Shown here: positions 53,281-56,194 of the stretch, one piece after another
Layout of the letters: every line of letters starts with the position of its first letter
How positions within the stretch are numbered: the stretch's first letter is position 1
Assembly: GCA_964511175.1 (NCBI GenBank)
Contig: CAZEEI010000002.1
Location: 132,382 to 196,381 of the forward strand
Direction: 5' to 3'
Origin: an uncultured Pseudomonadales bacterium
GTDB lineage: Bacteria > Patescibacteriota > Microgenomatia > UBA1400 > UBA1396
DNA: 64,000 nt
Notes under the pieces: model-generated
The model's input: only the letters and a program-made list of their open reading frames with translations
What the model was told of the DNA's origin: nothing
Database searches by the model: none
Position numbers and translations under genes: made by a program

Positions 53281-54360
53281 TTACGGTGTCACATTGCTGG
53301 CGAACCAAACCGGATCAATAGCTGGTACCAAAGCTTCAAAGCCGTTATCGCCGGTAAAAACATAGACCGGCTGATAATAATTCTGGGGTGTGGCGGGTTC
53401 GTAGTAAGCCAAGTAAACACTGCGGACGGTAGCCTGGTCGCCTGATCCCTGGTTGGTGACATAGCCCTGGCCGGCTTGCAGAGCCTGCCAAGCCTGGTTG
53501 GCCGACTGCAGTGGATAGGTTTCCACCGTCAGAGTATCGATGGGCTGATAATAAGAGCTGAGGCTCAAGATTCTTTCCCCCTGATCTCGACTTCCAGAAA
53601 AAAGAATGCGTATAACACCATGATCTTTGACATGGGTGATTGAAGGCAAACCATTGGGGGTAGCCCGGAAAATATCAACTTGCACAAAATCGGCCTCGGA
53701 AATACTGGCCGCCGTGCGCTGTTGTCCGGCCAAGGCTTTAATATAAGCAATTTTGGGTTCAGCCGTAGCAATATCTGGATAACTAAGATCCACTGATCGC
53801 AAAATAGTCCGCACTTCCGTAGCCAAAGACTGTGGTGTAGGAATCATTTTTTTGTTCAGCAGATCTGGAGAAGAAGCCCAATCTACCATTAAATTGAGTG
53901 TGCCATAAACCGTTTCTATTTCCAGTGTGGCTGGTATGGGTGTAGTGAGGCGCCAGCGGTACAGCGTATTGTTTATTTTTTCCGGGGCAAAAACAAATCC
54001 TAAGGCGGCAGCCTTGGCTTTGGCTTTGTCTAAAGCAATCAAACTAGGCTGAGCGGAAGGCATAAAGTATACCGGTATTTGGTTGCTGCCATACTCTGTT
54101 AAGCGTTGCCCAATGGTTTCCAAAACAAACTGCTTAGGACGATCTTCTAGAGACTGATTGGGGAAAGAGGGTAGTGGCAACAAACCAAAACCAACCGTGG
54201 CTGGCGGTGGCGGTGGCGGGTTGAGAGTCCGGTAAATCACCGCTGCGTAGCTAAAAAAGAAACGCCCAACAATGAACAATAGTAATAGTATTCCCCCAAA
54301 TTTGACTCCCTGCCGGCCATAATGGGCGACTTCGGACAAGGATAACTGACTAGTAGCCAT
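53281..54360 (-). CDS. membrane-anchored extracytoplasmic hypothetical protein (Pro-rich linker)
   Basis: N-terminal TM segment followed by PPPPPPA and a roughly 280-aa domain with no recognised motif. Confidence 0.55.
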   Translation of the reverse strand: MATSQLSLSEVAHYGRQGVKFGGILLLLFIVGRFFFSYAAVIYRTLNPPPPPPATVGFGLLPLPSFPNQSLEDRPKQFVLETIGQRLTEYGSNQIPVYFMPSAQPSLIALDKAKAKAAALGFVFAPEKINNTLYRWRLTTPIPATLEIETVYGTLNLMVDWASSPDLLNKKMIPTPQSLATEVRTILRSVDLSYPDIATAEPKIAYIKALAGQQRTAASISEADFVQVDIFRATPNGLPSITHVKDHGVIRILFSGSRDQGERILSLSSYYQPIDTLTVETYPLQSANQAWQALQAGQGYVTNQGSGDQATVRSVYLAYYEPATPQNYYQPVYVFTGDNGFEALVPAIDPVWFASNVTP

Positions 54361-54383: not shown

Positions 54384-55343
54384 TCATGGTGAAAATGTCT
54401 GGTTGGCGCGTGGGTTGGGAGCAATCGTATGCAAAACCCACTGAATCAGCGATTGCGCTTCGCCGTAGCGGTCGCGGCTGCCTAAAATAACCAGAAGCAG
54501 ATCTAGTTGTCCTGACAAGCTGGCTGGCTGATCAAGATAACGCACCACCAAATTTTCGCCCGCTCCCTCAGTGGTACCGGTTTTAACACCTCGATAGTGA
54601 TTATTACGACGTAGCAAAACATTGGTTGAATAAATAGTATCGGTCCGACCGGTATTTTTTTCGTGAACCAAAACTTGTTGCTGAGCCACAATATCTTCCA
54701 AAAAAGGAATACTTAGAACAGTGTTGGCAATTTGACCAATGTCTGCGGCAGTAGAGTACTGCTGCGCATCATCTAACCCGAGACTGTTAATAAAATGGGT
54801 ATTACGCAGACCCATTTGTTGCGCCCGTTCATTCATAATTCGGATAAAATTGAGGTCATTTCCCCACAACCCATTGGCTAAAGTTTGAGCGGCATCATTA
54901 GCCGAAAAAACCAACATGGCTCGCAATAAATCGGCAACGGAAAAACGATCCCGCGGCAAAAATTTAGCTCGATTACCCAAAACACCAGCTGCCGAACCGA
55001 TAGTTAATTCATCCTGTAAGTTATAAGTGTCATAGGCTACTAGCGCCGTCATTAATTTGGCCAAGGAGGCAACCGATGTGGCCACATTGGACCGATCGCT
55101 GTACAGCAAAGAATCGGTGGTACGATCCAACAACCAAATGGCCTGAGCCGTATAGGGTGGCGGAACATTATTAGTTAAAATAAGTGCTGGTTCCAGGGTT
55201 GGTGTAGGTGTAGCGGAAATTGTCGGCAAAACTACTTGTTTGCCGGAAAACTCAAATAATCCTCCCAGTAAACCTAGACCCACCACACCAAACCATAAAA
55301 TCAAAAGCCAGGACATTTGGCGCAAATTACGTAGCGGTTGCAT
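54384..55343 (-). CDS. D-alanyl-D-alanine carboxypeptidase (S11 family)
   Basis: Signal/TM segment, SxxK active site (SLAKLM), SxN (SAND) and KTG motifs. Confidence 0.8.
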   Translation of the reverse strand: MQPLRNLRQMSWLLILWFGVVGLGLLGGLFEFSGKQVVLPTISATPTPTLEPALILTNNVPPPYTAQAIWLLDRTTDSLLYSDRSNVATSVASLAKLMTALVAYDTYNLQDELTIGSAAGVLGNRAKFLPRDRFSVADLLRAMLVFSANDAAQTLANGLWGNDLNFIRIMNERAQQMGLRNTHFINSLGLDDAQQYSTAADIGQIANTVLSIPFLEDIVAQQQVLVHEKNTGRTDTIYSTNVLLRRNNHYRGVKTGTTEGAGENLVVRYLDQPASLSGQLDLLLVILGSRDRYGEAQSLIQWVLHTIAPNPRANQTFSP

Positions 55344-55409
55344 GTTCTTTATTGTGCCAGTGATTAAAGCAATTGGCGAGAGCCGTTGAGATCCGATCTC
55401 AAACGGTAC

Positions 55410-55438
55410 TTGTGTATCTTTTGGTTTATGGTTACAAT
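55410..55438 (+). promoter_or_regulatory. promoter (TTGTGT, 17-nt spacer, TACAAT)
   Basis: A -35-like hexamer at 55410-15 and a -10 hexamer at 55433-38. Confidence 0.4.
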
Positions 55439-55445
55439 GACCACC

Positions 55446-55595
55446 AATATGTTAAGTTGGCGCATGCCTCACACCTGCCGTTTCGTTTCCCTTCAAATTA
55501 AGGGTTCATTGGGGGTTTGTGTAGCCGCAAAACAATAAAATAACAACAAGCACAAAAAACAAACCCCCTCCCAACACGAGGGGGTTTTTGTTAGG
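55446..55595 (+). promoter_or_regulatory. structured 5' leader with alternative antiterminator/terminator helices (attenuator or riboswitch-like)
   Basis: GGGGGTTTGT (55511-20) is exactly complementary to ACAAACCCCC (55559-68). The same C-run forms the terminator stem CCCCCTC/GAGGGGG plus TTTTT (55564-89). Confidence 0.45.
55564..55590. terminator. intrinsic terminator (bidirectional)
   Basis: CCCCCTCccaacacGAGGGGGTTTTTG; the reverse complement is also followed by TTTGTTTTTT. Confidence 0.6.
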
Positions 55596-55628
55596 TCAAA
55601 TATGGAATTAAAACAGAAAGGAATCACT

Positions 55629-55787
55629 ATGAAAGCTGAAAAGGTTTTTAGTAATAAACGGGATTGGACTGATACGGCGCCGGGGAAGAGCGTGGTTAAT
55701 ACCACCGAATCTCTGGCCGAAATTAATGAACTTCGCCCCATTAGTCAACGTTATATGAAAAAAACGATTTATCTAAAATGGATATGA
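55629..55787 (+). CDS. small hypothetical protein (52 aa)
   Basis: ATG preceded by an AAAGGAA RBS; overlaps the next ORF by 10 nt. Confidence 0.35.
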   Translation: MKAEKVFSNKRDWTDTAPGKSVVNTTESLAEINELRPISQRYMKKTIYLKWI

Positions 55788-56194
55788 GTGCAAGTGTTAT
55801 GAACTTAAGACAAATACTAAAGGTAGAAGTTGCACCTAATAATCTAACCGAAGAATGTCAGCGGTCGGATGTGGGTTATCTGATAGCGCCAGCTCTTCTT
55901 TTTTGGATTCAGAGTTTGCAAAAAGGAGAATGGGCGGCACCTTACGCTTTAACTGCCAACAGTAAAATTGTGTCCTGCCAACGGGAAGGTTATCGCAAAT
56001 ATCAAGTAATCATTATCAACGACAACCCTCTAGAACCAAAAGCGATCAATTTAGTTATTAATCTGCCGTGGGATCCACGTTGTAATGTTGCCAAACTACG
56101 AACCATGATCGAAAATGTTAACCAGAGTTTGGCAGAAAATGCCGCACCTGCAGCTCAACCGCCTGACCAGGAAAATCACTTAAAGATAGCGTAA
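55778..56194 (+). CDS. hypothetical protein (138 aa)
   Basis: ORF translationally overlapped with the 52-aa ORF. Its C-terminal tail overlaps the recJ 3' end convergently. Confidence 0.45.
   Translation: MDMSASVMNLRQILKVEVAPNNLTEECQRSDVGYLIAPALLFWIQSLQKGEWAAPYALTANSKIVSCQREGYRKYQVIIINDNPLEPKAINLVINLPWDPRCNVAKLRTMIENVNQSLAENAAPAAQPPDQENHLKIA

Follow-up and report, generated by a model that had tools for sequence, protein, structure and literature searches.

We report here on a candidate transcription attenuator in a 64-kb window of contig CAZEEI010000002.1 from an uncultured bacterium (the window is the whole stretch of 64,000 nucleotides that was analysed, and all coordinates are positions in it). 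The locus is contained in the SRR8925802 assembly. The element is a short leader on the + strand, situated between the divergent gene dac and two small + strand open reading frames (ORFs), with recJ lying convergently beyond them. The leader would be transcribed from a promoter predicted from its sequence at 55410-55438 (+ strand), which consists of a -35 hexamer TTGTGT (55410-55415), a 17-nt spacer, and a -10 hexamer TACAAT (55433-55438). Because the -35 hexamer fits the consensus at only three of six positions, this promoter was missed by a consensus promoter scan. Ten nucleotides past the -10 hexamer, an ATG (55449-55451) opens the leader ORF (55449-55538, + strand), which comprises 29 codons (MLSWRMPHTCRFVSLQIKGSLGVCVAAKQ) and a TAA stop codon (55536-55538). 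In the mechanical ORF list, this frame is embedded in a longer ORF started at TTG. The promoter with its spacing, the ATG, and the 29-codon ORF had all been pointed out in a preliminary description of this stretch and can be read directly from the DNA.

The 3' half of the leader contains two helices that compete for one arm. Region 2, the 5' arm of the antiterminator (GGGGGTTTGT, 55511-55520, + strand), lies within the leader ORF at codons 21-24 and is a perfect 10-bp complement of 55559-55568. It is followed by a spacer of 38 nt (55521-55558, + strand), which is A/C-rich, U-poor, and unstructured, forms the antiterminator loop, and holds the leader stop codon. Region 3 (55559-55570, + strand) combines the 3' arm of the antiterminator (ACAAACCCCC, 55559-55568) with the overlapping 5' arm of the terminator, CCCCCTC (55564-55570). 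Region 4 (55578-55589, + strand), recognized by a terminator scan, consists of the 3' arm of the terminator, GAGGGGG (55578-55584), and a T5 tract (55585-55589); the scan reported this terminator on both strands. Since the arms overlap, the pairing of region 3 with region 2 and its pairing with region 4 are mutually exclusive. The complementary 10-nt arms and the terminator with its shared C-run are thus present as the preliminary description had them, except that the arms begin one base earlier than its text suggested.

The two helices of the window are of similar calculated stability (antiterminator, -17.2 kcal/mol; terminator, -16.9 kcal/mol). Pairing of the ORF region with the terminator's 5' arm yields a duplex of -19.7 kcal/mol, as against -9.9 +/- 2.7 kcal/mol in dinucleotide shuffles, only 5 of 2000 of which were as good, and a perfect 10-nt match arose in 23 of 2000 dinucleotide shuffles of the window sequence. 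Judged from the window alone, the complementarity is therefore unusual, not overwhelming. The minimum free energy (MFE) structure of the naked RNA prefers the terminator with an unremarkable z-score of -1.4, and the region upstream of it is weakly structured.

Conservation of the leader in related loci

Relatives of the leader were found by tracing homologues of Dac (48-63% identical) to syntenic contigs. The resulting set consists of twelve leaders: that of the window and those of the loci L005, L006, L007, L008 (identical to L009), L010, L011, L070, L071, L072, L073, and L074. The gene order is kept in these loci, with GltX, a 359-amino acid (aa) protein of no assigned function, and Dac, followed divergently by the leader, the small genes, and recJ. 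Homology of the leader itself was detected by nhmmer in ten of the relatives, with E values from 5.5e-31 to 1.4e-18. The leaders differ from one another at 27-40% of positions and are therefore not assembly duplicates. No part of the cassette is better conserved than the leader, with a mean column identity of 73% over five leaders.

The architecture of the leader is retained throughout this set. A promoter of the form TTGnnn / 16-17 nt / TA[CT]A[AC]T is found in register in all twelve leaders, and every leader ends in a GC-rich terminator hairpin followed by T5-T8. The T-tract ends 125-146 nt from the ATG. The internal spacing is similarly constrained. From the ATG it is 61-70 nt to the final G of the G-run in region 2, and the stop codon begins 8-21 nt past this G, always at the end of region 2 or within the antiterminator loop. 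The G-run starts 17-19 nt past a CAA codon described below (eleven leaders measured; 23 nt in L010). The spacers between the two arms of the antiterminator are 26-40 nt long and share the A/C-rich, U-poor composition in all relatives.

The distribution of the leader is narrow. A search of the 64-kb window by nhmmer detected no copy beyond the one described, and thus no sign of a regulon. No leader was detected by nhmmer in 58 distant metagenomic dac loci collected with a Dac alignment query (best identity, 42%), and a scan of genome contigs with the Dac protein returned only distant homologues with 30-33% identity. In the closest relative from the JGI metagenomes, L012 (positions 1-700; Dac 42% identical), dac and recJ are immediate neighbours and the cassette of leader and small genes is absent. 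The distribution suggests that the cassette is confined to a narrow clade, either by clade-specific insertion or by loss.

The leader ORF and its peptide

The leader ORF is open for 23-29 codons in all twelve leaders (L074 was read from its sequence). Among the 11 scored leaders, no stop codon falls within the frame of the ORF, as compared with 10 and 13 stops in the other two frames. The pairwise differences at codon positions 1, 2, and 3 were 0.24, 0.34, and 0.63, respectively, for codons 7-13 of the five closest leaders; for example, Cys-Arg-Phe/Tyr is encoded as TGY CGY TTY/TAC. As third codon positions are the most variable, the ORF is under coding selection, that is, selection acts on the peptide.

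In ten of the twelve leaders the ATG follows the -10 hexamer by 7-14 nt with no Shine-Dalgarno (SD) sequence, a distance too short to accommodate one. The remaining two, L007 and L074, have a later ATG, located 21 and 17 nt from the -10 hexamer, respectively, and carry an in-frame GTG or ATG 5-6 nt past it. This layout of promoter and start codon suggests that the leader mRNA is leaderless or near-leaderless.

At the amino acid level, the peptides share the pattern [HY]-T..C-R-[FY]..[ST]-L-Q, which in its fuller form reads [HY]-T-x-C-R-[FY]-x-[ST]-L-Q-I-K-G and variants thereof. The Gln of this pattern is encoded by a CAA codon that is invariant at codon 15-17 in all leaders (again with L074 read from its sequence) and is the only universal codon. 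In the window it is codon 16 (55494-55496), and it is included in a 16-nt block, CCCTTCAAATTAAGGG (55489-55504, + strand). This block is identical in the window, L005, L006, and L007, and differs by one synonymous change in L070 and by one K-to-M change in L074. In the closest (class-1) leaders, it is invariant at all three codon positions amid flanking third positions that are saturated, which suggests that it is under nucleotide-level constraint. Its sequence is not kept in the more distant L008, L010, L011, L072, and L073. The block could fold into a 5-bp hairpin with a 6-nt loop (CCCUU-CAAAUU-AAGGG); this candidate hairpin showed no excess stability, and its co-evolution was not significant (p = 0.12).

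Other candidate signals within the peptide were also considered. A sensor based on cysteine, tryptophan, or arginine codons was rejected because the peptides differ in how many of these residues they contain. A comparison with the leader-peptide families of Pfam gave no match, and inspection by eye for known arrest motifs revealed neither +x+ nor RAGP, nor W..D..P of TnaC, nor HIRRxxH of SpeFL.

Co-evolution of the alternative helices

Every leader carries a G-run arm in its ORF that can pair with the terminator's 5' arm, and the arm sequences vary by species. The arm pairs include GGGGGUUUGU/ACAAACCCCC, GGGGUUUGCG/CGCAAACCCC, GGGGUUGUGC/GCACAACCCC, CGGGGUG-C-GC/GC-A-CACCCCG, CCGGGGU/ACCCCGG, and UGGGGGC/GCCCCCG. 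Seven leaders continue after the Gs with a uniform U-run, and in each of these the opposite arm carries as many As as there are Us (3/3, 2/2, or 1/1); one pair is a G-U wobble in L072.

The co-evolution of regions 2 and 3 was evaluated in two ways. In an alignment-free test, each region 2 was paired with its own region 3 and with the region 3s of the other leaders. The cognate pairs gave -20.7 kcal/mol as compared with -16.3 kcal/mol for the non-cognate pairs, with a permutation p value of about 5e-6 for the 12 leaders and of 2e-5 for the 10 that remained after removal of two with near-identical arms. In a gap-free alignment, which was anchored on the G-run/C-run junction and hence built around the proposed helix and biased towards it, 76.9% of the cells were paired as compared with 65.2 +/- 2.6 in shuffles (reached by 0 of 500). 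In the same alignment, the covariation score was 0.312, as against 0.154 in shuffles (0 of 500) and 0.04-0.13 with slid partners, and nine of the 13 region 2:3 pairs were altered on both sides. We gave more weight to the alignment-free test because the anchored alignment leans towards the helix. Furthermore, RNAalifold predicted the region 2:3 helix unprompted from an untuned MAFFT alignment of five leaders. The preliminary description had made conservation and covariation of the arms in homologous leaders decisive for its proposal; the arms are indeed conserved and covary across the twelve leaders.

The arms of the terminator (regions 3 and 4) co-evolve as well, with a p value of about 1e-4. 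When each helix is taken by itself, the antiterminator equals or exceeds the terminator in stability in 10 of 11 leaders, for example in L005 with -24.7 versus -11.1 kcal/mol. Codons 6-10 contain an additional element, region 1 (YAYACYCC), which is similar to region 3 and could form a duplex of about -15 kcal/mol with region 2 in each of the leaders. Another pairing suggested by RNAalifold, between the hairpin region (55489-55504) and the 3' arm of the terminator, gave no co-evolution signal and was discarded.

Downstream genes

Two ORFs follow the terminator. Gene 1 (55629-55787, + strand), which is also a gene call in the source assembly, encodes a 52-aa protein and is preceded by the SD sequence AAAGGAA. 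Gene 2 (55778-56194, + strand) encodes a protein of 131-138 aa, with the called start at 55799. Homologues of gene 1 encode 40-63 aa with a C-terminal LPQR[FY][LI]KK.T.[FY] and follow the terminator in 10 of the 11 relatives; thus, a homologous small gene with its own SD sequence lies 15-45 nt past the terminator in 11 of the 12 leaders. Gene 2 is absent from L010, L071, and L074, in which the small gene alone is present. The two overlapping downstream ORFs of the preliminary description are accordingly, as judged from their sequences and synteny, real genes, of which three relatives have the small one only. The 52-aa protein shows 28-55% identity and the 131-aa protein 18-30% identity to class-1 homologues.

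Neither protein matched an entry of Pfam, NCBIfam, or PADLOC, and PHROGs gave nothing usable. The family of the gene 2 protein has seven members among 1.84 billion representative proteins, as counted by an exhaustive profile search; with the 138-aa protein as a lone query only the protein itself was retrieved, and with an alignment query only family members already collected. The AlphaFold2 model of the 131-aa protein was unreliable (pLDDT 46).

Two side observations concern these genes. An ATG at 55602 is in frame with gene 1 and open through to its SD-led start (55602-55631), and an ATG lies 4-15 nt past the T-tract and 9-14 codons before the SD-led start in the six leaders that have a long spacer between the terminator and the SD sequence (the window, L005, L006, L007, L070, and L010). 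This ATG could be an alternative start or part of a conserved (C/A)TATGA sequence motif. In addition, the convergent 3' ends of recJ (- strand) and of the 138-aa ORF (+ strand) share 77 nt (56118-56194), and overlaps of 4-125 nt are seen in L006, L007, and L008. The leader terminator, which also scores on the - strand, could stop antisense read-through from recJ.

Upstream flank

The upstream neighbour, dac (54384-55343, - strand), encodes an S11 D-Ala-D-Ala carboxypeptidase and is divergent from the leader. Homologues of Dac with about 50% identity carry the name Candidatus Woesebacteria, and the organism is therefore a bacterium of the Candidate Phyla Radiation (CPR)/Microgenomates type. The dac gene itself looks leaderless, with an extended -10 element CTGGCACAAT (55351-55360, - strand) followed by exactly 7 nt and the ATG (55341-55360 overall). 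The arrangement CTG[GT]CA[CA]AAT + 7 nt + ATG at dac is kept in every related locus, that is, in L005, L006, L007, L008, L010, L011, L070, L071, L073, L074, and the distant L012. This conserved layout suggests that leaderless initiation is common or normal in this lineage.

Between the divergent promoters of dac and the leader lies an imperfect palindrome, CCGTTGAGAT-CCG-ATCTCAAACGG (55383-55406), with one extra A in its right arm. The palindrome noted upstream of the -35 hexamer in the preliminary description does exist, but a role as an operator was rejected, as it is absent from the relatives. It is adjoined by a conserved TTG[AG]CGAG (CTCG[CT]CAA on the dac strand), which is probably the -35 region of dac. 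Farther upstream, a 359-aa ORF (53281-54360, - strand) lies between dac and gltX and has no match in Pfam or NCBIfam. An ORF of 355-383 aa is syntenic in nine of the 10 related loci whose contigs span that position, and L011 has two shorter ORFs (181 and 170 aa) in its place. The 359-aa protein has an N-terminal hydrophobic segment followed by a proline-rich stretch.

Proposed mechanism

We consider it likely that the element is a translation-controlled switch between terminator and antiterminator, that is, a ribosome-mediated (leader-peptide) transcription attenuator. In our best reading of the sequences, its leader peptide would be leaderless or near-leaderless, and control would extend to the gene for a lineage-specific protein of about 50 aa and, in most cases, to another for a protein of about 130 aa. 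The preliminary description had named a riboswitch or an attenuator and had raised the possibility of a leaderless leader peptide with translation-coupled attenuation. The latter is supported by the comparative data. The attenuator is favoured by the open ORF, the third-position variation, the short distance from the -10 hexamer to the ATG, and the covariation of the arms, whereas the riboswitch is disfavoured by the lack of an Rfam aptamer and by the coding nature of the sensor region.

Under this attenuation model, transcription would start a few nucleotides before the ATG at 55449, and a 70S ribosome would load on the 5'-terminal AUG. In the nascent RNA, region 3 (55559-55568) could pair either with region 2 (55511-55520) to form the antiterminator or with region 4 to form the terminator with its U5 tract. 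A ribosome that translates to the stop codon would cross region 2 and end within the 38-nt antiterminator loop. Its footprint of about 30 nt in that loop would be sterically incompatible with the 2:3 helix, so that the terminator would form and a transcript of about 140 nt would be released. If, in contrast, the ribosome were to stall before its P site had moved past about codon 17, region 2 would be left free and the antiterminator would form first, allowing RNA polymerase to read into the genes for the 52-aa and 131-aa proteins. A stall would free region 2 at just those codons that encode the conserved [HY]-T-..-[ST]-L-Q, including the invariant CAA. Because the peptide contains no run of any amino acid, it would not be a classical sensor of amino acid starvation. 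The stall could instead come from sensing of a drug or metabolite by a conserved arrest peptide or from translation stress in general; Gln-tRNA supply, acting through the lone CAA codon, is a less likely trigger. A more specific version, which we regard as speculative and rather unlikely, is that the peptide is a true arrest peptide that stalls the CPR ribosome near the Gln codon when a particular small molecule or a translation inhibitor is present, and thereby switches on the protein of about 50 aa (C-terminal LPQRF-KK-T-Y), which would act on the translation apparatus. It would then represent a sensory nascent-chain system unique to Microgenomates and operating on a leaderless mRNA.

Several observations weigh against the attenuation model, in addition to the lean of the anchored alignment described above. 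No amino acid is enriched or repeated in the leader peptides, and there is no regulatory codon run, so that the sensor of a classical attenuator is lacking. Pairing of region 1 with region 2, which would act as an anti-antiterminator, gave no cognate-specific signal (p = 0.47), non-cognate partners being equally good. The MFE structures of the full-length leaders keep the terminator in six cases and the antiterminator in five, and the behaviour of the untranslated RNA is ambiguous because the region 1:2 helix is without support from co-evolution. In L007 and L074, strict leaderlessness holds only if the upstream in-frame GTG or ATG is the start codon. The downstream genes are unannotated orphans, which give no physiological rationale, and the sample comprises 12 sequences from one narrow clade. 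Moreover, the site at which transcription starts, its termination at the U-tract, and a conditional read-through are predictions from sequence.

Alternative explanations

Among other explanations, we weighed the possibility that the leader is a stand-alone small gene, a 140-nt unit making a peptide of 23-29 aa or a trans-acting small RNA, in which case constitutive leak-through or a different promoter would account for expression of the downstream genes and the 2:3 pairing would only tune the efficiency of the terminator. Such a gene would account for the leader being the best-conserved part of the cassette (73%, as compared with 28-55% and 18-30% for the downstream proteins), for its conservation at the amino acid level, and for the variation of the downstream gene set among relatives. 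There is also precedent for trans-acting products of an attenuator, for example the attenuator RNA rnTrpL and the leader peptide peTrpL of Sinorhizobium meliloti, which are reported to act in this way. Such a trans function would supplement attenuation rather than replace it, however, and a simple terminator has no need of an upstream segment that has changed in step with its 5' arm, by substitutions and indels alike, in twelve lineages. In addition, a small gene with its own SD sequence follows the terminator in 11 of the 12 leaders, and no convincing -10/-35 pair was seen by eye between the two. We therefore regard this explanation as improbable. A switch that works independently of translation is, in our view, less probable still. 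In this case the leader would be a riboswitch or a protein- or tRNA-binding leader, in which a ligand or an RNA-binding protein recognizes the invariant CCCUUCAAAUUAAGGG and so tips the balance between terminator and antiterminator, and the ORF is incidental. The platform of terminator and antiterminator is indeed the same as that of riboswitches, and the 16-nt block is invariant at all codon positions amid saturated third positions. Nevertheless, this block is not kept in L008, L010, L011, L072, and L073, and the covariation of its hairpin is not significant. The ORF with its start and stop positions is conserved and shows coding-type substitutions, and a typical aptamer would need more than the roughly 60 nt of coding RNA available, most of which is unstructured. 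Consistently, no Rfam family was matched at threshold, and the weak matches were driven by the terminator.

The least credible explanation, to which we assign a very low probability, is that the complementarity arose by chance and that the terminator beside it is an ordinary one, perhaps acting in both directions, which only serves to insulate the dac and recJ units. The hairpin also scores on the - strand, G-runs pair with any C-run, and a 10-nt match occurs in about 1% of the window shuffles. A match by chance would not be expected to show conservation and co-evolution over twelve lineages, in leaders that differ at 27-40% of positions and are not copies of one sequence. The U-tract on the minus strand is poorly conserved in the relatives, and because dac is divergent and the small genes lie on the same strand as the leader, there is no upstream + strand gene that would need a terminator. 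We thus retain ribosome-mediated attenuation as the likely function of the leader.

Significance and comparison with known systems

A conserved, covarying attenuator in this clade would imply that organisms with reduced genomes use coupled transcription and translation, together with leaderless initiation, for gene control. It would also open a route to two orphan protein families, the expression of which evidently merits control. As a leader without regulatory codon runs that is yet conserved as a peptide, it is a candidate for a new arrest peptide, and a cell-free system would allow this to be tested with no need for a culture of the organism.

Rfam contains no family for the leader element. 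A scan of the whole window at the gathering thresholds returned three tRNAs only and thus none of the aptamers that the riboswitch of the preliminary description would call for. At E <= 10, the region 55300-55700 gave sub-threshold matches driven by the terminator, namely to the Thr, Leu, Phe, and rnk leaders, with 16-27 bits (16-21 bits for Thr, Leu, and Phe) as compared with gathering thresholds of 50-55 bits. A literature search that paired Candidate Phyla Radiation with attenuator found no such regulation described for the lineage.

The sub-threshold matches to Thr_leader, Leu_leader, and Phe_leader reflect an architecture shared with the classical attenuators (trp, his, leu, thr, pheA, and ilv). 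As in those systems, a short promoter-proximal ORF precedes a terminator whose 5' arm is able to pair upstream, and the position of the ribosome would decide between the two structures. Unlike the classical attenuators, the present leader has no regulatory codon run, and orphan small proteins rather than biosynthetic enzymes are encoded downstream. Its region 2 lies within the ORF, its stop codon lies in the antiterminator loop, and its 1:2 helix is unproven.

The leader also resembles the ribosome-stalling leaders that respond to antibiotics or metabolites (erm, cat, vmlR, lmrC, TnaC, and SpeFL), in which a short peptide is conserved as a sequence and not as a codon content; here, too, a stall would free the antiterminator. 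TnaC and SpeFL act via Rho and not via an intrinsic terminator. In contrast to this group, no known arrest motif was seen by eye in the present peptide, and neither a resistance factor nor a metabolic gene lies downstream. Among the ABCF genes for antibiotic resistance, vmlR of B. subtilis is reported to be controlled by transcription attenuation (PMC9226507) and lmrC of Streptomyces by ribosome-mediated attenuation (PMC8546547).

With respect to translation initiation, the closest counterparts are leaderless leader peptides involved in attenuation, of which 14 have been predicted in Deinococcus deserti (PMC4007540), and the leaderless polycysteine short ORFs involved in attenuation in mycobacteria (bioRxiv 10.1101/834739). 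Leaderlessness is therefore not new in itself. In common with these leaders, the present one has a short ORF predicted to lie at or a few nucleotides from the 5' end with no SD sequence, where stalling would control the downstream genes. The cognate amino acid is abundant in the Deinococcus and mycobacterial peptides, which lie ahead of genes for tRNA synthetases or for amino acid or cysteine metabolism, whereas the present leader combines a peptide conserved in sequence with the output of an intrinsic terminator. The class of mechanism proposed here is a textbook one, and what gives the element its value is the new lineage in which it would operate and the clean comparative evidence for it.

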